This document shows, in pieces, positions 12,676-60,600 of a DNA stretch of 64,000 nucleotides. The position numbers and the translations under genes were made by a program. Under the pieces are notes generated by a model, which saw only the letters and a program-made list of their open reading frames with translations, was not told where the DNA came from and searched no databases. Within the stretch, counting starts at the first letter, position 1. Each line of letters starts with the position of its first letter. Source of the stretch: Mytilus edulis (lineage: Eukaryota); NCBI RefSeq assembly GCF_963676685.1, contig NC_092350.1:29946001-30010000 (forward strand), read 5' to 3'.

Positions 12676-13004
12676 CTTGAAATATAGCTTTCGTTAGTCG
12701 AGTATAGCCTTTCCTCGTGCTAGCGCTGTAATACAGTACATGCTGTATAATTGCAAGTAGGATTGTACGTATATATCTTTCAGATCAGCTATGTTTTGTC
12801 CGTCGTAAAAGATGATAATGTAATTACCATGCCGTCACATCAAATCATAATTTTATCTTATGTATCTATATATAAAGAACCACATACATTTTAACAGTGA
12901 TATAATTTAATATACAATTTTATAAGGATTTATTCCAGTTTTGTGTATCAGTCTCAGTTAGTACGTACCTTATATTTCCTGAAGTTGACATCATACAATG
13001 ATAT

Positions 13005-14630
13005 TGTAAGGCATTGGAAGTACTTGTTATGATATTATAAATTCAGAAAAAGGAAATATTATTCTTTTAAACATAACGGTTGTGTTCTTACGCATAGTAA
13101 CTTGGCTCGCACGAGCAAGTAAAACATTTTTTTTAATCAAAGATATGGCATTAATTTACTATTTTTATGTATGGATTTCACAGGCCAAAGTTTCATTTTG
13201 TTGTTTACCAAATATAAAGGGGGGAAGCATTTCATTAGCTAAAACATAGTTTTACAAGTTAGGTGTGTACATATGTTGGTACTAGGGTGATAATTATCAA
13301 GTTTATCAAATTTTTAATGTGTAAAACACTGGAAGTGAAATGAATTTTTCATTTGTTTACATTTTTGTTGTACAAGTGTTACGGCAGGGAATGTATGTAA
13401 TTACTCATGGCTTACCTTCTACATGCTATATATCATGTAATTCCCGTATTAAGGATCATTTCTTGTAACCAAATATTCATATTTAAACGTCTAATATGCC
13501 TGATATACATAGGAAAATACTTCAATCGAATTGTTTATTTACGGAGACTTTGTCGTCTGCCATTTTGTGGGGACCGAAACATGTGTTTTGATATCTTTAA
13601 ATACCAATTCGTCCCCTGGACATTTGATCTAATATTGTATTTTTAATACCACAGATAAGAGTTTTAATAAGTATACCCTGCCGGACACAAATATATTGTA
13701 AATATTTAGATGGTTGAAATGAACTATGTTGTATGTTATTTACGTATTATGTAATTACGCAGATCGTCTGCTAAATCAATGCGCGCGCAGTGGTGTCCGA
13801 TTGTTTATTTCAAGCTTCTTTGTCGATACTTCAGATGCTATAGCTTTGTTTTGATATTTTATGTATAAGGACAATGTTCGGACAACTTAAGATGATATGT
13901 ATATCATGTTTTTCATTATCTGAAATTTTTATAGTTCCGGCTTCCCGGAAAGGACAAGTTTCCATTGGATTAGTATGTCACGTGACAATTACAATTTAGT
14001 ATATAAACGCGCGAGCACTCAGCAATAGCAGATAGCCCAAAGTTTTGCTGGCGGCAAGTTCAAACCTTGAAAAACAAATAAAGCAACAATAACCTTTAGG
14101 TGAGAATAAGGATAACATAATGAAGTTTAATGATATTTAATTAGCCGTCTTTTGTACAGTAAGCTATCTCCCACCACGTCGGACACCACAAATATGTATT
14201 TAAGGATTTATGATTCAGTACACTTGAACGCAACTGTTTATTTATATAGTTTTACGATGTTATAATGTTACATACTTTTAACAGTGAACAAATAAAAACT
14301 GTTAACATTGGAAAGATAACTTTATTTTATTGAACTTGGACACATACAAAAAGCACATGAATTTACACTGATGAAAACAATAGATGTTGGAGGACGCTCG
14401 TTCAAACATAAAAACTATGGAAAGCCGTTAGGAACAAAATTAGCTCAGTAACACTCGAATACAAGGGATTGCTCAATACATACATATTAAACATTCCGAA
14501 GACCATACCTGACAAGTAATTTGGGAAGTTTAATACAAATGTAGAGTAGCTACATGAGTCACACACTGTATTTAAGTGTTATTAAAGTAAACTACCGAGT
14601 ATAGGACAGGATGCTCTCGGGTGGCTTACA
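13005..14630 (+). repeat. 5' LTR
   Basis: Direct repeat of 22487-24112 (offset 9482). Only one difference was spotted by eye (GCAATAGCAG vs GCAATGGCAG). TATAAA at ~14003, AATAAA at ~14077 and ~14292. Confidence 0.98.
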
Positions 14631-14633
14631 ATT

Positions 14634-14651
14634 TGGTGTCAGAAGTGGGAT
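14634..14651 (+). promoter_or_regulatory. Primer binding site complementary to tRNA-Leu 3' end
   Basis: TGGTGTCAGAAGTGGGAT, 3 nt after the 5' LTR, is the reverse complement of the metazoan tRNA-Leu 3' end ATCCCACTTCTGACACCA. Confidence 0.9.
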
Positions 14652-14808
14652 GCTAAAATTCTAATTAGCATCCAGGATACGAACCTTGGAATAACCTGTC
14701 AACTTAAAAACGTGGTTTAAGCCCGACGTGGTGGATTTACTGTACAAAAATTTATTATAACTATAAAATATGAAACAACAAATAAAATAAAAAGTCTTTA
14801 TTTAGAAT

Positions 14809-15873
14809 ATGGCTGATGCTGGTAGGAACTCCCCAGACCCTGAAATAAATTTCCGTATGGAAAGGGATTTAAATTTAGATGACTTAGGACAAGGGGATCA
14901 AATACACACTGATGACAATGACGACTTTGATAGGGAATCAATTTTACAAGGTCATGGTGATGAAGTAGATCAGAGACATAAAGGACGGGATGAATATCAG
15001 AGACATGATTTTGACGATAGGAATGGTAGGGGTAATCATAATATGCAACCAATTGGCCCACCAAAGGTAACACTTAAACCTGAGCCCTTCTCTGGTAAGG
15101 ATTGTTGGGAGGAATACTTGTCGCATTTTGAGGACTGCGCTGAATTGGGACAATGGGGAAACCGTACAAAACTGTTGTTTTTGGCAGCTAGCTTAAGGGG
15201 CCAAGCAAGGACATACTACATGAGCTTGTCTGCTGGCGACAGGCGCACATATCAAATGCTAACACAAAAGTTAGATCAGAGGTTTGGGAGTTCAAAACAC
15301 AAAAATCGTTGGCTCTCAAAGTTAGAGATGCGCAGGCGCATGGCAGGGGAAAGCATAGCTGAGGTGGGGGATGATATAAGGCAACTAGCGCAAAAGGCGT
15401 ACTATGACCTGGACCTAGCAGCGCAGGAGTCTCTTGCATTAAACCAGTTATTCAAGGTAATAACTGTGGAGATGAAATGTCGTTGTATTGACAAGGAATT
15501 CCACACAATAGCAGACGCTGTTGATGTAATAGAGAGGTATGAATCAATATTGGGGGATCAAGACAAAAAGAAGTCAACAATGATCAGAGCTGTGGAATCC
15601 AAGGACACCGAAGGACACATGAGTGAAAAGGATTACCATAGCAATTTGCAGGAATTACAAGATAGGATAGCAAAGCTGGAACAAGGACATGGAAGTCGGG
15701 AATCAAAGAGGGCAAATACTGGCAGATGCTACGGATGTAACTCCCCAGACCATTTTATGAGGAACTGTCCACACAAAAACAACCAAAGAGCTAGAGGGAA
15801 TTTCCAGGGCAACCAAAGACAAAATACCTCTTTTAATCACAACCAGGGAAACGACAGAACGCTGGCTCAATAG
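14809..15873 (+). CDS. gag: Gag (capsid + CCHC zinc knuckle)
   Basis: 354-aa ORF after the PBS with the KPEPFSGKDCWEEYLSHFE retrotransposon gag motif and zinc knuckle CYGCNSPDHFMRNC. Confidence 0.95.
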   Translation: MADAGRNSPDPEINFRMERDLNLDDLGQGDQIHTDDNDDFDRESILQGHGDEVDQRHKGRDEYQRHDFDDRNGRGNHNMQPIGPPKVTLKPEPFSGKDCWEEYLSHFEDCAELGQWGNRTKLLFLAASLRGQARTYYMSLSAGDRRTYQMLTQKLDQRFGSSKHKNRWLSKLEMRRRMAGESIAEVGDDIRQLAQKAYYDLDLAAQESLALNQLFKVITVEMKCRCIDKEFHTIADAVDVIERYESILGDQDKKKSTMIRAVESKDTEGHMSEKDYHSNLQELQDRIAKLEQGHGSRESKRANTGRCYGCNSPDHFMRNCPHKNNQRARGNFQGNQRQNTSFNHNQGNDRTLAQ

Positions 15874-15906
15874 GTCGTGAGCTAGTGACAGAAGATAAAA
15901 GGCCTG
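15846..15906 (+). promoter_or_regulatory. Predicted -1 programmed ribosomal frameshift signal (slippery heptamer + pseudoknot)
   Basis: G GGA AAC at 15846-15852 is in the gag frame; pol is in the -1 frame and open from 15837. After an 8-nt spacer come stem GCTGGCTCA/TGAGCTAGT and loop AGGTC, which can pair with GGCCT at 15901-15905. Confidence 0.8.
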
Positions 15907-18900
15907 ATATGAAGGGAGAAAAACATGTCCGGACAGGACATATAGGGGAAACAGATGATAATTGGGATAACGGGTTTTATACAAATGGATTAATTTTTGG
16001 GTTTCCTGTCAACTTTTTAATTGACAGTGGCTCAACAGCGTCAATATTATCTATTGATGTTTACGAAAAATTGCCTTCAAATGTTTGGTGTTCTTTAGTA
16101 CCAAACAAGTCCGAAATATTTGACGTTAATGGCAATAAGGTTTTTGCCATTGGATCGATCATTTTAGAACTAATGCTTGGTCAAGAAATTTTCAGTCAAA
16201 ATTTTATGATATGCAATATCAATCAGGATGGAATACTTGGACAGGATTTCTTACTAAAGGAAGTTAGTAAAGTAAATTATCAGCGCATGGTCTTGCACAC
16301 GATCCACAACCAGGAAATACAATGTTGGATTGGAGGGAAGGCAAATATGATTTGCAGAGTAGAAATTAAGGACAACATGACAATTCCTCCAATGACGAGT
16401 ACTATGATGCCTGTAGAAATACCGGGAGTCAATCATTTAACAGAATACGGATTAATAGAGGGCACGACAGGAACAGCCAAGTCTACATTAACCATACCTG
16501 GGATTATAAATACACAAGACCAAGTACACTTTGTTAATGTTGTCAACTATGGTGACGACGAAGTTAAACTGTATAAAAAGGAAACAATAGGAACATGTGA
16601 ATCATATACTGAGCATGATTTGAAACCAGAGCAGATTAGAACACTACAGAAAGATTGCTTTACAGCTAGTGAAGAAATACCAGAACATCTTACTGACTTA
16701 TTAAAAAGGAGTTCAACTTATATAAATGAGGACCAAAGACAACAACTCTCCAGACTCCTTTCACAGTACCAAAATGTATTTTCAAGGACAGATGATGACA
16801 TAGGGAGGACAGACCTTGTAACACATAGAATAAATACAGGAAATGCAGTACCCTTTAGGCAGAGATCTAGACGTATGCCACTTGGAAAGCAAGAGATGGA
16901 AAAATCAGAAGTCAATCGGATGTTGGACAAAGGAATCATCGAACCATCTTCTAGTCCTTGGGCATCAAATATAGTCCTTGTAATGAAGAAAAATGGCAGC
17001 CCTAGGTGCTGTGTTGATTACAGAATTTTGAATGACGTCACGAAAAAAGATTCCTACCCGATTCCGAGAGTAGACGAGTGCCTCGACTCGCTCGCTGGAG
17101 GAAAATTCTTCGGATCAATGGACTTAAATTCAGGATTTTGGCAAATCGGCATGGCTCCTGAAGACAAGGAAAAGACCGCATTTCTGACAAGTTTAGGGTT
17201 ATACCAGTTCACTGTCATGCCCTTTGGACTTGCAAATTCACCATCTACTTTTGAGCGTCTGATGGAAAATGTTCTCAGAGGGCTACAGTGGAAAGAACTA
17301 TTACTCTACATGGACGACATCATATCAATAAGTTCTACATTTGAAGAGGGTCTTGGGAGGCTAGAAAGAATCTTTATACGTCTACAAAATGCACATCTTA
17401 AATTGAAACCTGCCAAATGCATTTTCTTTCAAAAACAAGTTAGGTTCCTTGGGCATATCGTGTCCGAGGAGGGAATTTCCACTGATCTAGAGAAAACAAA
17501 AGCAATAGATGACTGGCCTGTCCCTAAATCTGCAAAACAGGTGCGCAGCTTTTTAGGACTTTGCTCTTACTATAGGCGATTTGTTAAGGGATTTGCAGCA
17601 ATTGCAAGACCAATGCACAAAATTTGTGAAAAGAATAGCCGTTTTGCTTGGAATGATGAGTGTCAAAAGGCATTTCAACAGTTGAAAAGCGCTTTAACAA
17701 GTACACCTGTACTTGCCTACCCACTGCCAAATTTGCCATTCATACTTGACACAGATGCAAGTGATAAGGCTGTCGGAGCAGTGTTGTCACAAATTCAAGA
17801 TGGTCTTGAACGAGTTATAGCATACATGAGCAAATCTATGAACATACATGAACAGGCATACTGTGTAACCCGAAAAGAGCTACTTGCTGTAATTATAGCA
17901 CTAAAGACATTTCATCATTATCTATATGGTCAGGAAGTTTTGCTGCGCACAGATAACGCAGCTGTATCATGGATGAAAAATCTAAAGAAACCCACTGGTC
18001 AAACAGCCAGATGGCTCGAAGAACTGGGAACTTACAATTTGACAGTAACACACAGAGCTGGAAGGAAACACTCAAATGCCGATGCTCTGTCCAGAAGACC
18101 TTGTAAATCATGCGAGAGACAAGAATCTGGAAACCACGCAAGCGACGATGAAACAGACGAAATCCAACTTGAAGAAACTGATTTTGTTAACCAGGAGTTA
18201 CACGAAAATGAAGAACCAACACCAAGAATAGAAATAGTACGAGTATGTACAAGAAGTCAGACAGGAAATCAGTATAGTGCTACACCAAGTGGTTACTGCA
18301 TTGATGGATGGGACCCAGATAGTATCAGACAATGCCAATTGGAAGACCTAGACATGTCACTCATTGTGACATATCTTCAAGAAAAGAAAAATAAACCTGA
18401 CTGGGACCAAGTATCAAAAGGAACATCATTCCAGAAGACAATATGGCGACAATGGGATAGGCTAACAATAAACAATGGCATGCTTTATAGAAAATTTTAT
18501 TGTTCTGATAAAGACGATGTAGACAACTTCAAATTGCAGCTCCTGGTACCAAAATCACACCAAAAGACAGTCTTCAAGTATTTTCATGACGTTCCATCTG
18601 CAGGTCATTTAGGACCAGATAAAATGCTAAGTAGGATCCAGCAACTCTTTTACTGGCCAGCTATGAAAAGCTCCATCACAAGGTACTGCAAGGAATGTGA
18701 CCAGTGTGCTGCTAGGAAATCACTGAAGCGGAACAAGGCTCCATTGGGTCAATACTTGGTTGGCGAGCCTATGGAACGTGTGGCGATTGATATTCTTGGT
18801 CCACTTCCGTTAACAAAACGACAAAACCGCTATGTTCTGGTCCTTTGCGACTGCTTTTCTAAATGGACTGAAGCATATGCTATTCCGGACCAGGAATCCC

Positions 18901-19658
18901 TGACCATTGCCCGTACCATCGTGAATGAATTTATTTGTAGGTTTGGTTCACCATTACAGCTCCACTCTGATCAAGGAAGGTCTTTCGAAGCAAAGCTGTT
19001 TCAAGATCTGTGTGATCTACTTAAAATTGACAAAACTAGAAGTACAAGTCAACATCCCCAGTCCAACGGAAGCGTAGAAAGATTTAACAGAACACTCCTA
19101 AGCATGCTAACATTTTATTGTCAAAATGATCAGAGAAACTGGGATGAGATTTTGCCACAGGTTATGATGGCATACAGATCATCAGTTCACGCCAGTACAG
19201 GACAGACCCCTAACATGATGATGTTTGGCAGAAACATATTTCTTCCTATGGAAGCTGTTATTCCACGTCCTGATGGACCAAACGAATCCACTTCCCCTGA
19301 AACAGATAAATATGTAAATGAATTACAGGACGCAATGTCAAAGTCACATGTACTTGCTAGGAAACATCTTAAGCAGAATTCTGAGTATCAAAAACGTCAC
19401 TATGACTTGAAAGCAGTAAAGCGCGAATTACAAGTAGGTCAAGCTGTATGGCTTTATGATGCATCGAAGAAAAAGGGAATTTGTCATAAGTTGACATCAA
19501 AATGGAAAGGACCATATGTTGTTACAAGGAAAATTGACGACATCACTTACCTTGTGAGAAGGTCAAAGAAACAGCCAGGGAAGGTCTACCACATTGATAG
19601 ACTACTGCCCTATCAAGGACGGAATCCGCCCACTTGGTTCTCCAGTAGGAAGGTTTGA
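15885..19658 (+). CDS. pol: Pol polyprotein: aspartic protease, reverse transcriptase, RNase H, integrase (probably translated as a Gag-Pol frameshift fusion)
   Basis: Protease FLIDSGST; RT MPFGL and YMDD; RNase H LDTDASD/ELLAV/RTDN; integrase H-H-C-C, AIDIL/HSDQG/VERFN and KWKGPY. Uninterrupted 1257 aa. Confidence 0.98.
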   Translation: MTEDKRPDMKGEKHVRTGHIGETDDNWDNGFYTNGLIFGFPVNFLIDSGSTASILSIDVYEKLPSNVWCSLVPNKSEIFDVNGNKVFAIGSIILELMLGQEIFSQNFMICNINQDGILGQDFLLKEVSKVNYQRMVLHTIHNQEIQCWIGGKANMICRVEIKDNMTIPPMTSTMMPVEIPGVNHLTEYGLIEGTTGTAKSTLTIPGIINTQDQVHFVNVVNYGDDEVKLYKKETIGTCESYTEHDLKPEQIRTLQKDCFTASEEIPEHLTDLLKRSSTYINEDQRQQLSRLLSQYQNVFSRTDDDIGRTDLVTHRINTGNAVPFRQRSRRMPLGKQEMEKSEVNRMLDKGIIEPSSSPWASNIVLVMKKNGSPRCCVDYRILNDVTKKDSYPIPRVDECLDSLAGGKFFGSMDLNSGFWQIGMAPEDKEKTAFLTSLGLYQFTVMPFGLANSPSTFERLMENVLRGLQWKELLLYMDDIISISSTFEEGLGRLERIFIRLQNAHLKLKPAKCIFFQKQVRFLGHIVSEEGISTDLEKTKAIDDWPVPKSAKQVRSFLGLCSYYRRFVKGFAAIARPMHKICEKNSRFAWNDECQKAFQQLKSALTSTPVLAYPLPNLPFILDTDASDKAVGAVLSQIQDGLERVIAYMSKSMNIHEQAYCVTRKELLAVIIALKTFHHYLYGQEVLLRTDNAAVSWMKNLKKPTGQTARWLEELGTYNLTVTHRAGRKHSNADALSRRPCKSCERQESGNHASDDETDEIQLEETDFVNQELHENEEPTPRIEIVRVCTRSQTGNQYSATPSGYCIDGWDPDSIRQCQLEDLDMSLIVTYLQEKKNKPDWDQVSKGTSFQKTIWRQWDRLTINNGMLYRKFYCSDKDDVDNFKLQLLVPKSHQKTVFKYFHDVPSAGHLGPDKMLSRIQQLFYWPAMKSSITRYCKECDQCAARKSLKRNKAPLGQYLVGEPMERVAIDILGPLPLTKRQNRYVLVLCDCFSKWTEAYAIPDQESLTIARTIVNEFICRFGSPLQLHSDQGRSFEAKLFQDLCDLLKIDKTRSTSQHPQSNGSVERFNRTLLSMLTFYCQNDQRNWDEILPQVMMAYRSSVHASTGQTPNMMMFGRNIFLPMEAVIPRPDGPNESTSPETDKYVNELQDAMSKSHVLARKHLKQNSEYQKRHYDLKAVKRELQVGQAVWLYDASKKKGICHKLTSKWKGPYVVTRKIDDITYLVRRSKKQPGKVYHIDRLLPYQGRNPPTWFSSRKV

Positions 19659-20209
19659 GATGCCTTTCAACGTTGTTTGAATAGCCGAAATTAGTTGTAC
19701 AAGTTGTTACGTTTTTAATTGTTTTGATGAGTTACTATGTTTAAGAGTAACTGTTTGACTTTTCTCAGACTGGAGAAAGTCATGATGGAATTCCTAGAGT
19801 TGGATCCACTCTGGAAGAATATGTAAGGGAGACAAATGGCCATTGTTTCTCAGGACATATTATTGGCTGTAAGGGAAGGATGAATCTTCCTGCCAGGGGA
19901 ATGGCAGATTAAACTACTGCCAAGCGTTTTTTTTGTATGCGCAAGCTGCGCGGCGGAAAGCAATTAACGACAACTTACTGTCTTGAGGAGGCTTGAGATT
20001 TTTGAAATAGGGAGACCAAGGGGGTGGATATCATATTTTTAGACTGAAACTTAGCTTGATCCATTTACTACCAGCATATGCCATATGGGGGGAGGATTTT
20101 AAACACACAAACAAATATAGTCACACTACAGGACACTACATGATATTATGTATTGTATTAATATATGTTGTATGGTGGAGGGATTTATAATTGATGATTC
20201 AATTTCAGA

Positions 20210-22391
20210 ATGAGACCATCATCCCAAATTGAGGCAAAGTGTTGGCTGTGTCCCATGACGTTTAGGACAAGGAGACAACTGAAAAATCATCTGGCAGCTG
20301 CCCCACACAAAAGGCTTTCGGTCATTTGTGTTTGGTGTCCTGAAGAGAAGTCCTACAGGAGGATGGTTGACCTTAAGGAGCATGTCATGGCTCACCACCG
20401 CAGTAAAATAGAACTGATGCCTTATAGCTTCCTGAGCGAAAACAATGGGTTTTGGATGGCAAACTACCCAGAGACATATGCTAAGGTAATCCTACCATCA
20501 AATGAGAATTCGCAGGAAGCAATGAAAGCCAGGATTGAGGTTCTGGAATTTTTAAACAGGGTGGACAACACCAACAGAAAGAAAGAGGAATGGACTCTAG
20601 GGTGGAAGTGTCCGAAGGAGATGGTAAAAGGTACACAAGAAGAAGAGGTTGAGTCGGAGAAACCCAATGGATCTTACTCACCAACACGCCCCACTATTTA
20701 TGAAGGGCTGGCCCTCCAGCAACTAACTTTGGGACTTGGAGACTCTACAGCCATTTTTAAATTGGACCTTGGAGTTTCTATAAGATTTTATATGATCCAT
20801 TTGAATGACTCCGTTCTTAGAGACCAAAAAAATGCTTGACGCTCTAATTAGAAGGATGACAGCACTAGTTAACACAAAGTACGCAGGCTCACATACCTTC
20901 TCTGTCTCGATAGACGGAAAACTAAAATCTATAGTGGCTCCTGTAGTGGCTAGGAAATTATCCATAAAGGAGGAGTATATAATGGATATAAAAACATCAG
21001 GCGAATTATTCCCAGGAAAACAGACAAAAGCCGCCACAAATCAACTATCACCACTGAAAACACCATCAACATCTGACATCATTTTGGAAGACGACAGCGA
21101 CAATGAAGAACCAGAGATTTTAGAGGAACCAACAAGCCAGAAGAAGGGTAGAAAGACGACCGAGAAAGAAGAAGAGAGATATGTAGAGAAAAGAAAGAAA
21201 AAGACTAACCACCAGGAACAGAAGGCAAAGAAAATAAAGAAAGGAAAGGATTACAAGAAACAGGATGAGGAAATGACATTAACAGAGGAAGGACAAAAGA
21301 GAACGGAAAAATAGGAACAGGAGGAGATCAAACGGAAAGAGGAAGAACATAAGAAGCGGGAAACACAGAAACAGGAGGAGGAAGTCCGACTAAAGGAAAA
21401 ACAGGAACAGGAGGAGATCAAACGGAAGGAGGAAGAACATAAGAAGCAGGAAACACGGAAACAGGAGGAGGAAGTCAGATTAAAGGAAGCAGAACAAAAG
21501 AGAAAGGAAAAACAGGAACAGGAGGAGATCAAACGGAAGGAGGAAGAACATAAGAAGCAGGAAACACGGAAACAGGAGGAGGAAGTCAGACTAAAGGAAG
21601 CAGAACAAAAGAGAAAGGAAAAACAGGAACAGGAGGAGATCAGACAGAAGGAGGAAGAACGTAAGAAGCAGGAAAAACAGAAACAGGAGGAGGAAGTCAG
21701 ACTAAAGGAGGCAGAACAAAAGAGAAGGGAAAAACACAAACAGGATGAGGAAATTAGAATGAAAGAGGAAGAACTAAGGAAACAGGAGGAGGCAGAAACC
21801 AAGAGATTAGCAGAAGAAACCAGGTCAAATGAAGCAGAACTAATGAGACTACAGGAAGGAGAGAACCTGCAAAGTGAACAGTTTTACACTGCCAGTGAAA
21901 GAGCAGACAAACTTTTAAGGAGAGGTGGGATGCCACTTTTCCCAGCTGGGAGGAGGGAATGGGAAAAAGAAGAAATCGTAACTTTGATTACCATACCAGC
22001 TGAAGTGAAATGGCCCCCGAAGAACTGGAAAAACATGACCCCTGAACAAAGATATTTCAATTGGGAGTATGCTAGCATTGCATTGGAGTTAAACACCGGG
22101 AAACAGCTTCAATTTTCAAAGGAGGAGCTTCTATTAAAGTATCACTTTTTGGCACTTCCAGGCACGAAAACCCCACAATCAACAGAGGGCAATACAATGA
22201 CAGTTAAGTCTAGATACTATCTGTACCAAGCAATTGCCAATATCATTAAGAGTAAAACAGACGATCCCACCACCTTACAATTGCTTGATATGATTGAAGC
22301 ATCATCATCAAAGAGAGACACATCAACAGACATTATCTTGAACAAAATTGATGCAGTGGGTGTACAACTTAGACTTGGTGAAGACCAATGA
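20210..22391 (+). pseudogene. Accessory ORF3 of the Gypsy element: two C2H2-like zinc fingers, E/K/Q-rich coiled-coil repeats, unknown C-terminal domain; interrupted by one frameshift and one TAG
   Basis: ORFs 20210-20839, 20805-21314 and 21759-22391 join into ~725 codons if one A is removed from the A7 run at 20826-20832 and TAG 21312-21314 is read as CAG (sister repeats read AAA CAG GAA CAG). Motifs CWLC-x12-H-x5-H and CVWC-x13-H-x3/4-H. Confidence 0.7.
21305..21795 (+). repeat. Purine-rich coding tandem repeat (~108-bp unit, EQEEIKRKEEEHKKQETRKQEEEVRLKEAEQKRKEKQ-like)
   Basis: About 4-5 imperfect copies of CAGGAACAGGAGGAGATCAAACGGAAGGAGGAAGAACATAAGAAGCAGG... Confidence 0.85.
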
Positions 22392-22472
22392 AGAGAAAGA
22401 CAATTTATGAACAATTCTTTTAAATAACATAGTTATACTGGTTTTTTTAATTCAGGAGAATTAATATATATT

Positions 22473-22486
22473 GAAGTTGGGGGAAG
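22473..22486 (+). promoter_or_regulatory. Polypurine tract
   Basis: GAAGTTGGGGGAAG immediately before the TG of the 3' LTR. Confidence 0.8.
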
Positions 22487-24112
22487 TGTAAGGCATTGGA
22501 AGTACTTGTTATGATATTATAAATTCAGAAAAAGGAAATATTATTCTTTTAAACATAACGGTTGTGTTCTTACGCATAGTAACTTGGCTCGCACGAGCAA
22601 GTAAAACATTTTTTTTAATCAAAGATATGGCATTAATTTACTATTTTTATGTATGGATTTCACAGGCCAAAGTTTCATTTTGTTGTTTACCAAATATAAA
22701 GGGGGGAAGCATTTCATTAGCTAAAACATAGTTTTACAAGTTAGGTGTGTACATATGTTGGTACTAGGGTGATAATTATCAAGTTTATCAAATTTTTAAT
22801 GTGTAAAACACTGGAAGTGAAATGAATTTTTCATTTGTTTACATTTTTGTTGTACAAGTGTTACGGCAGGGAATGTATGTAATTACTCATGGCTTACCTT
22901 CTACATGCTATATATCATGTAATTCCCGTATTAAGGATCATTTCTTGTAACCAAATATTCATATTTAAACGTCTAATATGCCTGATATACATAGGAAAAT
23001 ACTTCAATCGAATTGTTTATTTACGGAGACTTTGTCGTCTGCCATTTTGTGGGGACCGAAACATGTGTTTTGATATCTTTAAATACCAATTCGTCCCCTG
23101 GACATTTGATCTAATATTGTATTTTTAATACCACAGATAAGAGTTTTAATAAGTATACCCTGCCGGACACAAATATATTGTAAATATTTAGATGGTTGAA
23201 ATGAACTATGTTGTATGTTATTTACGTATTATGTAATTACGCAGATCGTCTGCTAAATCAATGCGCGCGCAGTGGTGTCCGATTGTTTATTTCAAGCTTC
23301 TTTGTCGATACTTCAGATGCTATAGCTTTGTTTTGATATTTTATGTATAAGGACAATGTTCGGACAACTTAAGATGATATGTATATCATGTTTTTCATTA
23401 TCTGAAATTTTTATAGTTCCGGCTTCCCGGAAAGGACAAGTTTCCATTGGATTAGTATGTCACGTGACAATTACAATTTAGTATATAAACGCGCGAGCAC
23501 TCAGCAATGGCAGATAGCCCAAAGTTTTGCTGGCGGCAAGTTCAAACCTTGAAAAACAAATAAAGCAACAATAACCTTTAGGTGAGAATAAGGATAACAT
23601 AATGAAGTTTAATGATATTTAATTAGCCGTCTTTTGTACAGTAAGCTATCTCCCACCACGTCGGACACCACAAATATGTATTTAAGGATTTATGATTCAG
23701 TACACTTGAACGCAACTGTTTATTTATATAGTTTTACGATGTTATAATGTTACATACTTTTAACAGTGAACAAATAAAAACTGTTAACATTGGAAAGATA
23801 ACTTTATTTTATTGAACTTGGACACATACAAAAAGCACATGAATTTACACTGATGAAAACAATAGATGTTGGAGGACGCTCGTTCAAACATAAAAACTAT
23901 GGAAAGCCGTTAGGAACAAAATTAGCTCAGTAACACTCGAATACAAGGGATTGCTCAATACATACATATTAAACATTCCGAAGACCATACCTGACAAGTA
24001 ATTTGGGAAGTTTAATACAAATGTAGAGTAGCTACATGAGTCACACACTGTATTTAAGTGTTATTAAAGTAAACTACCGAGTATAGGACAGGATGCTCTC
24101 GGGTGGCTTACA
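22487..24112 (+). repeat. 3' LTR
   Basis: Copy of 13005-14630, followed by the ATAT TSD. Confidence 0.98.
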
Positions 24113-25754
24113 ATATTATTGTCATGCATATTTGAAACTTTTTAATAACTGTTGATGTTCGTGACCTTCGTCGCACCCTATCATCAAATTTTATACTATT
24201 TTTTTCACGACTTTGAAATTACAAATAATTATGAATAATTAATTCTTATAACTTTCAAAATTTTCATTTTACATATTTGCGGTAAATTCAAATGAGCAAT
24301 GATTAGATATTAGCGTCTCATCCAGCAGTGGCTGTTTCACAGGGTCAACTCTTTTTCACACTATTTCATTGAAAAGTCGTGTTCATAATTTCAGTTTTAT
24401 TGCTACAGAACAGTCAATTATTCTGGAAATTGTGGATTGCATTTCATTGCTTTTAGAAGAAGTTGAAACAATAGTTTCGATTAAAATTAACACCAATATA
24501 TTATTTATTAAAAAAATATGTAATGTTAATTCTTAATTTTTACGTTCAAACTAATTGATGATGTATTTGGCTATTATTTTATGTCCATTTTGGTCTTGAA
24601 TCCCTTCAGCTGTTTCGGTTCTCATACATTGAGTGTTCCTGGTGTGGGTAAATCCCAAAATGTGCATTGAATGCAGGCAGTTTATTGAGCGGTTTTCATT
24701 TATAATATATCTATGATACGTCTAACTCACGATTAGAAATGTGTTTGTTGTCAACCTCCTATTTCTCTTTACTACCTTGCACTCTGTCCTATCTTAGGGT
24801 TTTAAATCTCAATTGATACAATGTTTGGACTGAGGAAATATCATCAAATGTAAAGGGAACGAAACCTGAGAAGAGGTTGATATCAAATAAAAATGAATAA
24901 AACCTCAATAATTATACATGTAAGACAATACACTCATTTCCAAGATAAGATTCTCCAACAAACATGACGTGTGCAACTTGTGGAACAAAAACTGCTTCAG
25001 CACAGAAACACCAATTATGAAGGGTTAAGAAGAAGAAAAACTGAAATCAAAAAAAGTTTTAAAGTTCTAAATCACGTGATTCCTTCATGTTTTTAACTAT
25101 ATTTGTATACTAGTATTCACAATTGGTTTTGAACATCGATAATCTATTGTTGCCTTTTATCTATTCATAGTGTATAGATATTGACACTACAGTAGGTTCG
25201 TATTTATTCGTCAATGTTCAGTTGGGTTCTGAAGATTTAAATTGCCTGAGCGAAAAAAAATATATATTCTACTTAATATAATAAAGAACGTACAATGTAT
25301 ATTATACGATGTATCTTCTGAAAAAATAAGAACAATTTTACCTTCATTTCTCATGTACCAATCGTATACACTTCATAAAATTAAAACACCACATAGTTAA
25401 CAGTCTGGATCATCTTCTATTAATATTTGTAGGCGTTGTTCAGATTAAGCGTAACATTGATTTCATAGTTAATATATTTAATAGTTAGTACATTTAAAAA
25501 TAAACAGCCTAATCTTTTTATTTACAATGTTTTGTTACATATCAATTGAAAAGTTGATACAAAACATAGAATAGTACGAAATTTTGGATGCTATTAATAT
25601 TAACATATATTTTTTTCTAAGTATTGACCTGGTCTAATCGACGCTATCGTTTAGAGCCCATCCTGTCGACTCACCCGTGCTCCTTCATGTGACCACCCCA
25701 GTTTTTGTTTTAACATTGATGTGTATCGTCTTATTGAACTAATGAGATATGAAC

Positions 25755-27201
25755 ATCGGTAAAACACTGTTGTCTCTAATTGATGTAATTCCATAATATG
25801 GCTTTCGATTGAGCGCTAGGATCGGTAAAACACTGTTGTCTCTAATTGATGTAATTCCATAATATGGCTTTCCATTGAGCGCTAGGATCGGTAAAACACT
25901 CTTGCCTTTAATTGATGTAATACCATAATATGGCTTTTCATTGAGCGCTAGGATCGGTAAAATACTGTTGCCTCTAATTGATGTAATACCATAATATGGC
26001 TTTCCATTGAGCGCTAGGATCGGTAAAACACTGTTGCCTTTAATTGATGTAATACCATAATATGGCTTTCCATTGAGCGCTAGGATCGGTAAAATATTGT
26101 TGCCTCTAATTGATGTAATACCATAATATAGCTTTCCATTGAGCGCTAGGATCGGTAAAACACTGTTGCCTTTAATTGATGTAATACCATAATATGGCTT
26201 TCCATTGAGCGCTAGGATCGGTAAAATATTGTTGCCTCTAATTGATGTCATTCCATAATATGACTTTCAATTGAGCCCTAGGATCAGTAAAACACTGTTG
26301 CCTCTAACTGATGTAATTCCATAATATGGCTTTCGATTGAGCGCTAAGATCGGTAAAACACTGTTGCCTCTAATTGATGTAATTCCATAATATGGCTTTC
26401 CATTGAGCGCTAGGATCGGTAAAATAGTGTTGCCTCTAATTGATGTCATTCCATAATATGACTTTCCATTGAGCGCTAGGATCGGTAAAACACTGTTGCC
26501 TTTAATTGATGTAATACCATAATATGGCTTTCCATTGAGCGCTAGGATCGGTAAAATATTGTTGCCTCTAGTTGATGTAATTCCATAATATGGCTTTCCA
26601 TTGAGAGCTAGGATCGGTAAAACACTGTTGCCTCTAACTGATGTAATTCCATAATATGGCTTTCGATTGAGCGCTAGGATCGGTAAAACAATGTTGCCTC
26701 TAATTGATGTAATTACATAATATGGCTTTCGATTGAGCGCTAGAATCGGTAAAACACTGTTGCCTCTAATTGATGTAATTCCATAATATGACTTTCGATT
26801 GAGCGCTAGGATCGGTAAAACACTGTTGCCTCTAATTGATGTAATTCCATAATATGGCTTTCGATTGAGCGCTAGGATCGGTAAAACACTGTTGCCTCTA
26901 ATTGATGTAATTCCATAATATGACTTTCGATTGAGCGCTAGGATCGGTAAAACACTGTTGCCTCTAATTGATGTAATTCCATAATATGGCTTTCGATTGA
27001 GCGCTAGGATCGGTAAAATACTGTTGCCGCTAATTGATGTAATTCCATAATATGGCTTTCGATTGAGCGCTAGGATCGGTAAAATACTGTTGCCTCTAAT
27101 TGATGTAATTCCATAATATGGCTTTCGATTGAGCGCTAGGACCGGTAAAATACTGTTGCCTCTAATTGATGTAATTCCATAATATGGCTTTCGATTGAGC
27201 T
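25755..27201. repeat. Minisatellite, 66-bp unit, ~22 copies
   Basis: Unit GGATCGGTAAAACACTGTTGCCTCTAATTGATGTAATTCCATAATATGGCTTTCGATTGAGCGCTA in head-to-tail copies with no spacers. Confidence 0.97.
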
Positions 27202-37200: not shown

Positions 37201-40200
37201 ACAAATGAAAATCGACACTAGTCCATTTTGTTAACTTTTTAACTTAAAGACACGTATCAACATTTTTTTATCGAATGTAAATTTCTAAAAGAATTTTGGG
37301 AAATCATTAATAAAATCTTATCTCAAATGAATTTTAATAAAAACATTAACTTAAAAGATATTGTAATAGGCTACAAAATAACAGATAATGAGTATATCGG
37401 ATTCAATATAATTCTGACACTGACTGATAGGATTTGCTATCTACAAATCATACTATGTATCCAATCAAAGAAATAAATCTACTAATGTATTCAATCTCTT
37501 TAAATCTGAATTTGACGAATATGTAAGATCCTACAATCTACAAGAATATACTACAGTTCAAGTGCTTCACACTTTAATTTCTCCAAAAATAAAACACTCT
37601 TTTCTCTGTTACATGTATCATGTGTATTTGTAGTAGTGAATTGAAAATAGTAGCATTTTTTTATATTGAGGGTGGGCAGGGACCTCTATATTTTCATTGA
37701 AGTGGGGTTACAATATATAAGGGCTTTCTGATCAATTTCCTTCAGTTCAAATGTTGTCTACTTTGTCATGAGTTTGCAAAATTCATCTGTTTCACAAAAG
37801 GTTTAAATTTATTTTATGAATAAAAGAGTGTCAGGAATATGAGATAGACACACAGAATATACCTTTATAATAGCCTCTGAGCATATATCTTTTTCATAAT
37901 TGAAATAAGTTTAATGGTCTAAACAAGATTACTTAATAGCTGACTATGCCATGTTGTCTTTGCTCATTGTTGAAGGCTGTACGGTGACCTATAGCTGTTA
38001 ATTTCTGTGTATTTGGTCTCTTGTGGAGAGTTGTCTCAAAAGCAATCATACCACATCTTCTTTTTATACATGTTATAGTAAACCTATTCCTGTTTAAAGA
38101 ATATCACTGTAACTTAAACATTTAAACAAAATCATAAGCTGTAAATGTAACATGCTTTAATTTTCATTATTTTAATTTTAAAGATAGACAGAAGAATCAC
38201 TGCTTTTATTGAACAGAAAAGACAAGAAGTAGATGAGTACAATAGGAAAGAGTTCTGTTCTGTTTTCACAGATGAGGGTATGTAGTATTTCCTGTAGCTT
38301 TTAGCTACTCTTTTTACAGGAAAAGTTATACTGAAATGTTCATACTTTTACTCGTACGATTTTTCGTGAAAAGAGCTGCAGGTCAGTGTCTTGTATGGGG
38401 AATAAATCATCCTATTGACATATGCTTATCTATATTATATTTAGATCTTGATGACAGTTGTGCCAGAGTCAATGCTGTGTTTTTATCTAGACCTGGTGGA
38501 AAGAGCCACATCAAAGGTGAGAAATATTTATGCCCCATTTATGGGTATATGTTTTTCGGTCTATGCATCCTTTCCTTCCTCTCTGACTGTGTGGCCTGCC
38601 TCAAGTTTAATTTTTGGTCAAGGTAGTTTTTGATTAAGTTAGAAGTCCAATCAACTTGTAACTTAGTACACATGTTCCCTTTGATATAATCTTTCTAATT
38701 TTAATGCAAAATTAGAGTGTTGATCCCAATTTCAAGGTCAACTGATCATAGAAAATCATAGTTCAAGTGGGGCATCCGTGTACTATGGACACATTCTTGT
38801 TTTTGTATGTTTATCCGTCACAGGTTTTCAATGTAAAAAGGTTGCATCATATTTTTTGAAAATCAGTGTCGTCATTTCTTGATAACACAAAGTTTAATAG
38901 CCTCTATAAGTTTAGATTAATTTCCCTTTGTATTGTCAAATGTGTAAAATGTTAGACATGAAATCAGGGTTGATACCTAATATAACGTATTCATTGATTC
39001 AGAATAAAAGTGAGACAAAAGATACCAATTGGATATTCAAACTCATAAATAAAAAACAAACTGATAATGCCATGGCAAACAATGAAAAACTATCATCAGA
39101 CACAAATCTGTATACATGTCACTAAATAGAAAACTATCATCAGACACATTTCTGTATACATGTCACTAAATAGAAAACTATCATCAGAAACATTTCTGTA
39201 TACATGTCACTAAATAGAAAACTATCATCAGACACATTTCTGTATACATGTCACTAAATAGAAAACTATCATCAGACACATTTCTGTATACATTTCACTA
39301 AATAGAAAACTATCATCAGACACATTTCTGTATACACGTCACTAAATAGAAAACTATCATCAGACACATTTCTGTATACACGTCACTAAATAGAAAACTA
39401 TCATCAGAAACATTTCTGTATACATGTCACTAAATAGAAAACTATCATCAGACACATTTCTGTATACATGTCACTAAATAGAAAACTATCATCAGACACA
39501 AATCTGTATACATGTCACTAAATAGAAAACTATCATCAGACACATTTCTGTATACATGTCACTAAATAGAAAACTATCATCAGACACATTTCTGTATACA
39601 TGACACTAAATATAAATAAAGAGCTGCTGAACCAACGCCTCTTAAGTTTTGTGCTAGTAGAGTTTCCTTAAGTGGATACCAGATGGTATGCAGGGTTGTC
39701 AGATAAAAAAATCAAATACCTCTACATTGACAACAACACTTAAGTAAACTGCATCTTTTATTGTCGACATGTTTCGCCGATTAGATCGGCTTCATGAGGA
39801 CAAAGTATACAAAATTAGAACCCCTGAAGTAATCGGCGAAATATGTCGACAATAAAAGAGGCAGTTTACTTAAGTGTTGTTGTCAATGTAGCGGTATGTC
39901 ACTAAATAGAAAACTAAAGACTGAGCAACACACACCCTATCAAAATACATGGTGATCTCAGGTGCACCTGAAGGGTAAATAGATACTGCTACAAATGTGG
40001 CATATACACATGTGATAAAGGTATTAAATATGTACTGAAATACATGTATACTATTAACTCCTGCTCCAACAAAATCATCATATATAATAATATCTGATCA
40101 ATCTTCCAAGCTAATCAATGTCATATTTTGAATAATAGATCAATGATATTATTGAGATATTTCTATTGAAGTTTCAAAAGTGGTAAATCTCCATGGTCCT

Positions 40201-49295: not shown

Positions 49296-50527
49296 TTTTT
49301 ATACTGAAATCGATAAAAAAAAATAATAAAAAAAATAAAAATATGTAACATATATTGTTCAAAAAAAGTGTTTGGAATTTCCCTCTTGGGGTACCATTTT
49401 GGGGTATTTCCCTATGATCGTAGTCCAGGCGATAAGACATTGACATTTTAAGGAATTAGAAAGGGGAAATGAAATTAATTAATAACATTTAATAAACATG
49501 GTATATAAATTACCAATTTGAAGACATCACAAGTTAAATTTATAAAAGTTTGACCATTGTTACTACACGTTGTCATAGTTGTGACGTGACGTTGTTGATG
49601 AAATACAGTAGTTCCGGTAAGTAGGCGGGGCTTATAGGTTAGTTGAGGTCATTGACGTATAAAGCTAATGTTCATACGTATAGCTTTATCTGTATAGTAA
49701 AATAGCTGCTTACACTAACGATAACATGTATGAAAGAGGGACTGTAAACATAATAAGCTGTTGATAAATAGAGAGCAGCACATCATATCAGAAACTTAAT
49801 AATTTTACCTTCCGTTACGTAGTATAGACAGTATCAGGAATATCTGTACATGATGTTGTGTTTGTTATCAACACATTATGCTAATAAAATATTCCGCTGT
49901 AATGTCTCATACCGGCCAGACAATATCATATGTAAACTTGTTTATCAAAAGGCATGAACGATCTTCGAAAAAAGGAAATATTACCAATGAAGCGTTACCG
50001 AGCTAAAATTCATACTTTTCTTAACTATATGTGTTATTCTATCAACATATATATGTTACCATTTCATTTTAATATTTTACGTTGTACATTCGACCAGTAT
50101 TAAGTTTTGATAATTTTCTTGCCTTTGCTTATGTCTTCAAATATTCATCAGTATGCGATACTGTAATGTACCTGACCGGATTCAACAACAAAAACCTAAG
50201 GCAGATTGAGTTCTCCCACAGTAAATTGCTTCGTCGTTTCAGTGACGACGATGTGTGAACAAAACAAAGAGACATACTAGTAATAGGCATCATATGGAAA
50301 TGTACAAAATATGGGTACAGCAGTCATTCAACAGTGTGTCATTATCTTAATCACTATACTACAATCCATATTTATAAAAATTTGGAATTTAGGAATGATC
50401 CCGCGGAGCCACTCCTTGTTATCTTATCTAGCATCGAAAACTGTGATAAAGTACTATAATAAACTCATAATAGATATCAGGATTAAAACTTCGAACGCAT
50501 TTGCTTTTTTATTGAAACAGTAATTTA

Positions 50528-50731
50528 ATGACCTCCTATACATCAGATGTCATTAGGTTGACTAAGGAAATGATTGGGTGTTTCTCATTACATGGCCTGC
50601 TATACATCTGGTGTCATTAGGTTGACTAAGGAAATGATTGTGTGTTTCTCATTCAATGACCTCCTACACATCTGGTGTCATTAAGTTGACTAAGGAAATG
50701 ATTGTATGTTTATCATTAAATGGTCTCCTAT
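50528..50731. repeat. 64-bp minisatellite, left part (split by the ISL2EU insertion)
   Basis: Unit CATCTGGTGTCATTAGGTTGACTAAGGAAATGATTGTGTGTTTCTCATTCAATGACCTCCTATA, ~3 copies. Confidence 0.9.
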
Positions 50732-50882
50732 AGCCCTTTCCGATAACTAGGTTATCTTCCCTGAAATTTGGAACTCTCCTGTGAAAGGAGATAGTGGTAA
50801 AAGTGCTTCCGGTAGGTAACCGGCAAACTGAAACGTAACTGGTTGCACGGTGGATAAAGTCAGTTTATAGCGAGATATAGTC

Positions 50883-57093: not shown

Positions 57094-57262
57094 TGCTATC
57101 TATAAAAACTGTCCTGGTTCACGTAGATATCGATATATAGTAAACTAGTAATTGATGAAGTGGGCGTTGTTATGGACGCTGGTAGGTGTACCTACCGGAA
57201 GCAGTAAATCTCCGATAGCGGAGAACGCCTAAAGGGAAATAACCTAGTTATCGGAAAGGGCT

Positions 57263-57636
57263 ATACATCTGGTGTCATTAGATTGACTAAGAAAATGATT
57301 GTGTGTTTCTCATTGAACGACCTCCTATACATCTGGTGTCATTAGGTGGACTAAGAAAATGATTGTGTGCTTCTCATTCAATGACCTCCTACACATCTGA
57401 TGTCATTAGGTTGACTAAGAAAATGATTGTGTGCTTATTAAATGGCCTCCTATACATCTGATGTCATTAGCATGATTAGATTGACTAAGAAAATGAGTGT
57501 GTGCTTCTCATTCAATTACCTCATATACATCTGGTGTCATTATGTTGACTAAGAAAGTGATTGTGTGTTTTTCATTAAACGGCCTCCTATACATTTGGTG
57601 TCATTAGGTTGACTAAGAAAATGATTGTGTGTTTCT
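57263..57636. repeat. 64-bp minisatellite, right part
   Basis: About 6 more copies of the unit, resuming in register after the right TIR. Confidence 0.9.
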
Positions 57637-57640
57637 GATG

Positions 57641-60600
57641 TATGTACAATGAACTAAATAACCTTGTTTGAAAATTTGCCGCATCAACTCTTATTAGTTA
57701 TATATTTTTTCCCATATTAAAATCTCAACATGTTAAAAATGTTTCTTGTAAAAGTTGTAAAACTTCAAAATTGGATCGGAACAAAATGAAATAAATAGAC
57801 CTTTTCATAGAAAATGACATACCCTCTAAATTTATCAAACGTGTAAATTAATAGGGTAAAACACAATTTACTGATTTGAAAAAAAAATGTGGCACGACCA
57901 ATTTCTATTATCAAAAAAATATACTAAATATTAAAAAGTTTTCCCCTATAAATGTTGCAGAATTAAAAAAAAAAATGGATTTTTTTTAATTCGGAAAACT
58001 GACCGAATGTACAATGATTATAAACTGTTTTAAGTATGTATGTTTTTAAATAAGTCTCAAACATTCATTTTAAAATACTTTTTTTCCAAACGATGGTAAA
58101 TTACTATCTTTTCTAAGATGTTTGATGATTTTAAAATGTGTTACAGTCTTTTGGTACAGGGGAGGAGAGTAATGATTTGAATATGTGTTACAGTCTTTTG
58201 ATACAGAGGAGAAGAGTAATGATTTTAATATGTGTTACAGTCTTTTGATACAGGGGAGGAGAGTAATGATTTTAATATGTGTTACAGTCTTTTGATACAG
58301 GGGAGGAGAGTTTAATATGTGTTACAGTCTTTTGATACAGGGGAGGAGAGTTTAATATGTGTTTCAGTCTTTTGATACAGGGGAGGAGAGTTATGATTTT
58401 AATATGTGTTACAGTCTTTTGATACAAGGGAGGAGAGTTTTAAACTGGTTTCAAACGTTATCGAGAAAGTAGTTATCAATGGTCACTTTTCTACTGTAAA
58501 TTGACTGATAAATAGAACTTTAAAGTATAAGTTTTAAATCAATATGCATTTAAAGCAGTAAAGTATGTGTTAAACAGTACAATTAAAGCTAACGTTGACA
58601 ATTTGTTTTTTTACCAACATAAATGGTTATTTACAGTTAGTGATTTGTGGCTTAAACAGCATTCTATGCACATGTAACACTATATTGTTACCTAATTGAA
58701 ATGCTTAACTAAAACTGTGGTCAGTATGACATACATTAAAACTGCGATGGAAAACTTTTATAACAAGGGCCAACAATTATAGATTTGTTCTTTCTTTGTT
58801 CAATATATCCATAAAATCCTTGTCCTGGAGGTTTTCTGGCCCTACTTATATGCACAGTCAATATGTTTTTTAAGAACCCATGGGTATATAAAACCTTTAA
58901 TGTTTGTACCTTTTGATATATAGCATAACCGGTAAAGAATTGCGTAACTTTGTTTTACGTGGGAATGTTTTAAATGTTTAAATTTCCATATTGCTTGAAT
59001 TATATAATACACAATAATTTTCGGCTTTGTCATCTTTTATTTAACATTTTTATTATATTTAGTTTCCAAACATGATAATGCGATTTTTCACGTACTATTT
59101 TAGTTTATAATTTTTTTCTATTTCATTCGATAAATAAAATCAAAGAAATCTACATCATTAAATATCAAAACGACACGTTATACTTTAATTCGTCAAAAGC
59201 GCTTTTCTGGATTTACCTTCATCGTTTATCGTGTGCAAGTAAAATTTTGAAAATCATTGATATTCAGATATTTTACATTTTTAATGCATTCATTTGTGAC
59301 TGGTGTACCCGTTTGATATGCATTATAAAGCAACTATAGTTCATCGGGTCAACATGACAAGATATACATAACAATGATTTTCAATTATGAAGTAGTGCGA
59401 AAAGCTAAACGAGCAGTTTGAAAGATCATACATCTTAAGTCTTGATATCAGCACTAAGAACAGAACTAAGTAAGTACTATGTTCTTCCAAATTTAAAACT
59501 AATTGCACTAATTGTACACTATATGTACAATGAACTAAATAACCTTTTTCATAGAAAATGGCATACCCTCTAAATTTATCAAACGTGTGAATTAATAAGG
59601 AAAAACACAATTTACTGATTTGAAAAAAATATGTGGCACGACCAATTTCTATTATAAAAAATATACTAAATATTAAAAAGTTTTCCCCTATAAATGTTGC
59701 AGAATTAAAAAAATGGATTTTTTTTAATTCGGAAAACTGACCGAATGTACAATGATTATATAACTGTTTTAAGTATGTATGTTTTTAAATAAGTCTCAAA
59801 CATTCATTTTAAAATACCTTTTTTTCCAAACGATGGTAAATTACTATCTTTTCTAAGATGTTTGGTGATTTTAATATGTGTTACAGTCTCTTGATACAGG
59901 GGAGGAGAGTAATGATTTTAATATGTGTTACAGTGTTTTGATACAGGGGAGGAGAGTAATGATTTTAATATGTGTTACAGTGGAGGAGAGTTTAATATGT
60001 GTTACAGTCTTTTGATACAGGGGAGGAGAGTTATGATGTTAATATGTGTTACAGTCTTTTGATACAGGGGAGGAGAGTTTTAAACTGGTTTCAAACGTTA
60101 TCGAGAAAGTAGTTATCAATGGTCACTTTTCTACTGTAAATTGACTGATAAATAGAACTTTAAAGTATAAGTTTTAAATCAATATGCATTTAAAGCAGTA
60201 AAGTATGTGTTAAACAGTACAATAAAGCTAACGTTGACAATATGTTTTTTTTACCAACATAAATGGTTATTTACAGTTAGTGATTTGTGGCTTAAACAGC
60301 ATTCTATGCACATGTAACACTATATTGTTACCTAATTGAAATGCTAAACTAAAACTGTGGTCAGTATGACATACATTAAAACTGCGATGGAAAACTTTTT
60401 TAACAAGGGCCAACAATTATAGATTTGTTCTTTCTTTGTTACATATATCCATAAAATCCTTGTCCTGGAGGTTTTCTGGCCCTACTTATATGCACAGTCA
60501 ATATGTTTTTTAAGAACCCATGGGTACATAAAACCTTTAATGTTTGTACCTTTTGATATATAGCATAACCGGTAAAGAAATGCGTAACTTTTTTTTACGT

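Follow-up and report, generated by a model that had tools for sequence, protein, structure and literature searches.

A conserved two-finger third gene, putatively regulatory, in a lineage of bivalve Gypsy elements

Introduction

Gypsy elements are usually viewed as gag-pol elements with or without env. Accessory regulators whose genes lie 3' of pol and which are expressed through splicing are familiar from foamy virus (Tas) and HIV (Tat and Rev); between these and the gene described here, a relation in sequence or fold was neither found nor expected.

Third ORFs are already known from several LTR elements, namely env (PMC13524379), CERV (PMC10309623) and the enzymes of rotifer elements (PMC5408684), and a small ORF is reported from some Drosophila elements (PMC11952523). 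CERV of the Caenorhabditis elegans element Cer1 occupies the place of env in a Gypsy element without being an env gene; it is made as a spliced product, comprises three folded domains on flexible linkers, carries NLS-like motifs and is needed for the export of genomic RNA (gRNA) (PMC10309623). The third ORFs of bdelloid rotifers are modular, non-env and found in invertebrate lineages with a dUTPase domain (PMC5408684). Among transposon proteins, VANC of the Arabidopsis VANDAL transposons is known to counteract silencing in a sequence-specific manner; this accessory protein differs among related families (PMC5735166).

The locus analyzed here lies in a stretch of 64,000 nucleotides of the Mytilus edulis genome (NC_092350.1, positions 29,946,001 to 30,010,000; hereafter the window) and carries a third ORF (ORF3) that shares with CERV its non-env nature, its position, several folded domains and NLS-like motifs. 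CERV is joined to gag exons by splicing, combines H, M and G domains with a possible C4 finger and is described from nematodes only (PMC10309623); ORF3 starts at an ATG of its own, encodes two C2H2 fingers and, in sister families, ends in swapped C-terminal modules. It also differs from errantivirus env, which is recognized by a signal peptide and a TM anchor (PMC13524379), in having zinc fingers and neither a TM helix nor a signal-like stretch. The rotifer ORF3s encode enzymes (GDSL esterase, DEDDy exonuclease; PMC5408684), in contrast to the C-terminal domain of the present ORF3, which has no conserved acidic set. VANC belongs to plant DNA transposons and its DNA binding and demethylation are known (PMC5735166), whereas DNA binding by ORF3 is a prediction; by analogy, we propose that ORF3, like VANC, would act in trans on its own element.

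Mollusc Gypsy elements have been surveyed and classified by RT/RNase H, with MolGy1-18, CsRN1 and Mag A/B/C as named clades (PMC6238403), and other surveys proceed likewise (PMC8556966, PMC9679248, PMC10294476). In a literature examination that included PMC6238403, PMC8556966, PMC9679248, PMC10294476, PMC12440569, PMC13524379 and PMC13228809, with Repbase, GyDB, Dfam and subscription journals outside its scope, a zinc-finger third ORF of bivalve Gypsy elements was not found described. While third ORFs as such are known, a two-finger gene with swapped modules in a bivalve Gypsy lineage would thus appear to be new within that literature.

Results

Structure of the element and of ORF3 in the window

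The window contains a young Gypsy element (13005-24112) with open gag and pol, flanked by a 4-bp target site duplication (TSD), ATAT (13001-13004, repeated at 24113-24116). All features given below are on the forward strand. The 5' LTR (13005-14630, TG...CA) includes a TATA-like box (around 14000) and differs at 1 base from the 3' LTR (22487-24112), which begins directly after GGGGGAAG. A primer binding site (PBS, 14634-14651) of a type that we take to be tRNA-Leu is the same or nearly the same in 5/5 families of the clade defined below. The gag frame (14809-15873, with a zinc knuckle) precedes pol (15837-19658, 1273 aa), in which protease (PR), a weak dUTPase-like stretch, reverse transcriptase (RT), RNase H (RH) and integrase (IN) follow each other, and the polypurine tract (PPT) lies at 22479-22486. 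Both the order of gag and PR-RT-RH-IN and the joint presence of LTRs, TSD, PBS and PPT are those of a Ty3/Gypsy LTR retrotransposon.

The initial annotation, made from the sequence alone, had placed a non-env ORF between the pol stop and the PPT, and this is where we found it, since the pol frame stops at 19658 and the 3' LTR starts at 22487. A non-coding spacer (19659-20209), ending with an acceptor-like site, is followed by ORF3, a zinc-finger accessory gene (20210-22391). The window copy of ORF3 has two breaks and thus consists of three pieces (20210-20839, 20805-21314, and 21315-22391), the frame first breaking within a run of A near 20825-20831 and then meeting an in-frame stop (21312-21314). 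The previously estimated length of ~725 codons is correct, because the pieces match an unbroken 726-aa protein of the same family (P0178) with 207/207, 162/165, and 357/358 identical residues. ORF3 as observed in the window was thus confirmed to be real. The frame breakage itself had gone unmentioned in the initial annotation. In this assembly ORF3 is broken in 6/6 copies of the window's family, at several different places, the copy in the window having intact gag and pol, so that ORF3 would be dispensable in cis, or some of the breaks would be sequence errors. That a young copy combines intact gag and pol with a broken ORF3 would be explained if the protein acted in trans.

Domains of the ORF3 protein

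According to the structure models, the ORF3 protein is composed of two classical fingers (20240-20398), a conserved helical domain immediately C-terminal to them (20405-20614), an alpha/beta middle domain across the first break (20711-21020, the end being approximate), a variable linker (21021-21881), and a conserved, mainly helical C-terminal domain (C-domain) of ~165 aa with no function assigned (21882-22391, model pLDDT 95). The two N-terminal C2H2-like fingers claimed previously were recovered both as a Pfam zf-C2H2 match (E 2.7e-5, 24.8 bits) slightly below the cut-off of 25.2 and as a two-finger fold visible in the model of the N-terminal 261 residues (pLDDT 89); the CxxC...H...H ligands and the beta-beta-alpha fold are both present. 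In finger 2, helix position -1 is R/K in 54/59 aligned sequences and position +3 is D/E in 60/61, while the recognition residues of finger 1 are variable among the aligned homologues. These two positions are the base-contacting ones in the standard finger code. A finger pair recognizes no more than ~6 bp, and fingers of the C2H2 type may bind RNA or protein as well.

The maximal hydropathy over 19 residues did not exceed 1.57 in 6/6 unbroken members and in 3/3 pieces of the window copy, in agreement with the earlier statement that ORF3 has no signal peptide or TM helix and is not env. The linker of the window's family comprises an acidic/basic stretch with NLS-like motifs, then E/K/Q-rich tandem repeats with a 111-bp unit. 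A charged coiled coil, which had been listed as part of the architecture, was rejected as a conserved feature: the E/K/Q stretch belongs to the repeat linker of this one family, and a coiled coil would be incidental because the linker is S/T/P-rich instead in 3/5 families of the clade.

The conserved residues of the C-domain are mainly P, W, G, L, and R, without a conserved acidic set, which suggests an interaction module rather than an enzyme. No Pfam family was found for this domain, a Foldseek search of PDB and BFVD with its model gave nothing at E<=0.001 (best VIA Z 4.1, rmsd 4.7, 79 aligned), and its profile had 0 matches in a sequence search of the PDB, where the N-terminal profile matched mainly fingers. 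The model of the N-terminal and middle parts reached at best Z 4.6 (rmsd 3.5, 72 aligned), with a known-fold match for the finger pair only. In the Atlas search there was no usable match for the C-domain, and the whole protein retrieved generic finger clusters under 0.9. A GTPase-like G domain or a ring-forming M domain of the CERV type was absent from the fold-search listings for ORF3, although ORF3 may still have one. Such missing matches, obtained with models, do not establish a new fold; the C-domain can be described as a confidently modeled domain added here without an assigned function.

Copies, selection and taxonomic range

The search of the genome with the C-domain gave 39 matches among 43 scored candidates, for which 34 stretches were fetched, several rows being pieces of a single locus. 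We found pol upstream on the same strand in 28/34 loci; in a 29th (L063) the end of pol sits in the adjoining stretch L045, and the remaining 5, all truncated, could be aligned with element DNA. All 34 fetched loci thus belong to elements and not to host genes, as expected for the element-encoded gene, with copies beside Gypsy pol, that had been claimed. This type of ORF3 follows pol in five divergent families (~50-53% pol identity), each with a complete copy whose LTRs are 99.4-100% identical, and is unbroken in 5/34 loci, drawn from 4/5 families. In a quick tree of 27 rows, the five families and two metagenome elements, L066 and L067, formed a single branch (7 rows, SH-aLRT 100), hereafter the clade. 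Insertion sites are ATAT, GTAT, or ATAC, in the clade as in sister families with other modules, and several insertions lie inside unrelated tandem repeats.

The dN/dS comparison suggested in the initial annotation gave 0.07, 0.08, 0.13, and 0.15 for four domain comparisons between subfamilies; values rose to 0.33-0.44 when the linker was included and to 0.65 against a decayed copy (L035). Compared with L066, synonymous sites were saturated, and identity was 82% for the fingers, 73% for the helical part, 62% for the C-domain, and 76% for pol. These sequence comparisons support purifying selection on ORF3.

The C-domain profile matched 356 clusters at 50% identity, and 69/76 long homologues matched the N-terminal and C-terminal profiles both. 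Among the matches listed, the eukaryotes with a name are bivalves throughout (five Mytilus species, Ostrea, Pecten, Mercenaria, Dreissena, and Sinanodonta), named sources being a minority of the matches. One further copy in the genome analyzed here encodes a protein identical to a public one labeled Mytilus edulis. Two labels of bacterial MAGs were also present, on contigs of 3-6 kb, and presumably correspond to clam DNA. In Dreissena, ORF3-type proteins are multi-copy and located on several chromosomes. Outside the M. edulis genome, ORF3 was seen beside pol in just two elements, L066 and L067, and the fused gene models P0004, P0017, P0180, and P0046 suggest that it may be adjacent to pol elsewhere too. 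None of the observations that had been named beforehand as speaking against the claim was made: homologues were not confined to host genes or to a single copy, dN/dS was not near 1, and no known annotation of the ORF as a Gypsy feature was encountered in the literature consulted.

Two-finger ORFs in sister families

We scored 135 of 2131 candidates of an integrase search, 19 rows of which belong to the ORF3 clade. From the other 116 rows, 60 were chosen in favor of long open frames and not as a random sample, and these 60 sister loci fell into 34 groups at ~85% integrase identity. In this selected set, a two-finger ORF followed pol in 21/34 sister families (29/60 loci), and a finger-like ORF was present shortly after pol in 28/34 and absent in 6/34. 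The pair pattern was found in 0/180 control tiles and the single-finger pattern in 13/180. The finger ORF was located between pol and 3' LTR sequence in all 10 sister elements traced to their ends, the 5' LTR being only partly in view in 3 of them. The initial annotation had missed that a two-finger third ORF recurs in many sister Gypsy families, its C-terminal module being swapped among them.

The C-termini of the sister ORFs differ: a KCTD-type BTB in some, acidic and basic tails in others, and in others again a short hairpin-like domain, sometimes accompanied by TQT repeats. BTB_2 (PF02214) was identified in the 3/3 loci tested in one branch (L083, L088, and L090, with 53.8, 60.4, and 32.4 bits for a gathering score of 21.4) and was absent from the ORF3 of the window in Pfam. 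Another branch has 2-4 TQT-like repeats in the C-terminus. The ORF3 profiles of the clade gave matches at 0/20 sister loci tested, so that the case for a common origin of the finger ORFs is confined to position, acceptor, and build.

Putative expression route of ORF3

For the splice acceptor that the initial annotation had put 1 nt ahead of the start codon (20210), we located the acceptor-like sequence TTCAATTTCAG at 20198-20208, one base upstream of the ATG. An AG is located 1-2 nt upstream of the ATG in 6/6 clade members with a mapped start, ORF3 having its own ATG there. With a strict pyrimidine rule, 4/6 clade members passed and the window copy did not, the background being 1.2% of 2100 ATGs. 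Among sister families, some of which offered more than one ATG, the strict rule was passed within 2 nt in 8/21 and within 9 nt in 13/21. The otherwise unrelated spacers (390-1007 nt) have TTTCAGAATG as the main word in common. A candidate splice donor (TAG/GTGAG, 14097-14105), ~100 nt downstream of the TATA-like box, is shared with the related element L066 only.

Contigs assembled from four runs labeled "RNA?" cover gag, pol, and ORF3 without a joint, one of them spanning 17897-21239. The raw reads of four runs with another label (6-18% of each examined) covered mostly the LTR; their depth on ORF3 was only 0-2 and no splice junction was seen, the one joint observed being inside the LTR with non-splice ends. 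At such coverage neither data set speaks for or against splicing. Among 30 loci no spliced retrocopies were found; two deletions seen there show microhomology of 9-11 nt and lack GT-AG ends.

A motif in the 5' LTR (14171-14182) is complementary to a motif in the leader (14723-14734), and this 12-bp match was reached in 0/200 shuffles. Equivalent pairs with different letters exist in the families F2, F3, and F4 and in L066, and none in F5 (5/6 elements positive). Such a match could correspond to a predicted long-range RNA pairing or to two copies of one DNA site. We did not find an LTR motif common to the whole clade among the five families, comparable to the repeated non-coding motifs to which VANC binds in its own element. 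GGACA occurs 9, 3, 3, 4, and 5 times in their LTRs versus shuffled means of 1.9, 2.5, 1.7, 1.9, and 1.2, and clusters of it near the TATA-like box stand out in 2/5 families only.

Discussion

We propose, with moderate confidence, that this bivalve Gypsy lineage has in ORF3 a conserved third gene whose product, translated from a predicted spliced RNA, would bind DNA in the nucleus and thereby regulate the element that encodes it. In a transcript starting in the 5' LTR, a donor located in the LTR or leader would be joined to the acceptor that precedes the ATG by 1 nt, and the resulting protein would enter the nucleus, where the finger pair would bind a short family-specific site in the non-coding DNA of the element. 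The C-terminal module (the C-domain in ORF3, BTB or TQT in sisters) could then recruit host co-factors or multimerize. A finger pair at one end, an exchangeable effector, and a separate predicted spliced product are together best explained by a trans-acting transcriptional regulator. Activation or anti-silencing, exerted in trans on every copy in the family, is the more likely sign of this regulation, and repression is possible. Speaking against this reading are the failure to see a splice junction at very low depth, the lack of an LTR motif clearly common to the clade, the variable finger 1 and the short site read by two fingers, the broken ORF3 in all copies of the window's family, the higher of the dN/dS values, and the 6/34 sister families with no finger ORF. 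Among the three functions put forward in the initial annotation (trans-activator, anti-silencing factor, and integration tether), the tether is the least favored.

Several other roles have to be weighed against a transcriptional regulator. The position and predicted spliced origin of ORF3 are those of CERV in Cer1 (PMC10309623), and an RNA factor of the Rev or CERV type, produced from spliced RNA, could bind the unspliced genomic RNA and help to stabilize it or to move it out of the nucleus. Where the acceptor is strong, an element has to export its unspliced RNA, and the LTR-leader complementarity of 5/6 elements would offer a possible RNA target. We nevertheless consider this role unlikely in view of the classical C2H2 pair with conserved -1 and +3 residues and of the BTB and TQT modules of the sisters, which are more typical of transcription factors; moreover, CERV shares gag exons and has H, M, and G domains, whereas ORF3 has its own ATG directly behind the acceptor. 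The fingers could instead bind a host silencing protein that the C-terminal module would degrade or sequester, a BTB being an adaptor for cullin-3 and TQT repeats a sink for LC8. The KCTD-type BTB_2 of one sister branch and the TQT repeats of another are in line with such a counter-defense adaptor, as are a rapid turnover of modules, which fits an arms race, and the reported requirement for LC8 in piRNA-guided silencing in Drosophila (PMC7861614). It appears rather improbable, however, for it leaves unexplained both the DNA-contact-type conservation of finger 2 and the family-specific fingers, and the C-domain in the window is neither BTB nor TQT.

With one end for DNA, another for protein and a long linker between them, the ORF3 protein would also have the build of a tether that links the integration complex to chosen chromatin. 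This reading seems slightly less likely still to us, given that the insertion sites are merely ATAT, GTAT, or ATAC whatever the module, that several insertions lie in unrelated tandem repeats, and that a separate spliced product would need to be packaged or to meet the complex in trans. As for a captured host gene or a neutral passenger, public annotations do call these proteins ordinary host C2H2 genes and many copies are broken, but the location of 34/34 fetched loci in elements, the purifying selection on ORF3, its unbroken state in young elements of 4/5 families, and its multiple copies on several chromosomes of Dreissena largely refute this explanation, to which we give hardly any credence.

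Returning to the transcriptional regulator, a broader proposal can be made more tentatively, and we think it may well be wrong: each family of a large bivalve Gypsy radiation with "complex" genomes would encode its own sequence-specific finger factor with an exchangeable effector (BTB, LC8-type repeats, or the C-domain), activating or un-silencing its own copies. If true, animal retrotransposons would have in these factors their equivalent of VANC and of the trans-activators of retroviruses, and many of the "C2H2 genes" annotated in bivalve genomes would have their true source there. A conserved, modular finger gene in dozens of young families of one genome, with relatives in six bivalve orders by name, would show that animal LTR elements carry regulators of their own, and ORF3 offers a direct test of how LTR elements escape silencing. 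Many bivalve gene models labeled "C2H2" and "BTB" may be element genes, which is a warning for annotation. Finally, in a likeness of build only, which concerns a host gene and does not apply to the C-domain of the window, one sister branch resembles the transcription factor ASCIZ/ATMIN in having N-terminal fingers, a disordered tail, and repeated LC8-type motifs (PMC5963919).

Complementary motifs in the LTR and leader

In the young Gypsy element of the window, a leader motif located behind the PBS (14723-14734) was complementary to a motif of the LTR (14171-14182). A complementary pair was recovered at equivalent positions in families F2, F3 and F4 of the same clade, as well as in L066, a metagenome element of this clade, with a length of 9-12 nt across families and letters varying from one family to another; the pair was absent in F5. 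Only 0-4 of 200 shuffles matched this complementarity. A second motif at 14179 overlaps the LTR motif and is matched by an inverted partner at 13790; with this partner, both ends of the RNA would be able to pair in alternative ways.

Behind the PBS itself come a short hairpin and GGATACGAACC, in this order (14634-14685), and the other families have similar words. Primer-activation signals provide an analogy for pairing beyond the PBS into the tRNA T-arm, and by this analogy GGATACGAACC could extend the pairing in the same way.

RNA reads of another label skipped 836 nt inside the LTR (13082-13919) with non-splice ends, a gap that probably corresponds to a shorter LTR variant. Between protease and RT, a weak dUTPase-like stretch (16368-16589) remained under the Pfam cut-off (E 0.019).

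Deleted copies and insertion sites

Most of pol was missing in three internally deleted elements, L040 and L054 (F3) and L050 (F4). The unbroken ORF3 (zinc-finger accessory gene) of L040 despite its deletion, together with the almost identical deletion of L054, suggests that these two F3 elements form a non-autonomous lineage.

Tandem-repeat arrays were the insertion sites of the full-length copies L037+L074 and L042+L079. A small contig carries L034 and L064, tandem copies of the window's family. The window itself contains five tandem arrays (25755-27200, 39086-39616, 50523-50732, 57261-57636 and 58125-60055), with units of 66, 44, 64 and 47 bp; on its minus strand, the 66-bp array reads as one long, repetitive frame.

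Third ORFs of sister Gypsy elements

Among sister loci outside the window's clade, the third ORF ended in a KCTD-type BTB domain in L083 (4601-5671), L088 (4313-5512) and L090 (4154-5533), a branch in which finger 2 looks C2HC-like. The third ORFs of L082, L084, L085, L086, L100 and L101 carried a short LPDG-containing module and one to four TQT-like repeats, possibly LC8-binding. The finger ORF was absent in the Gypsy copy L092; downstream of this copy lies a frame of 192 aa (L092:6124-6699) that, on visual inspection of its motif, looks GDSL/SGNH-like.
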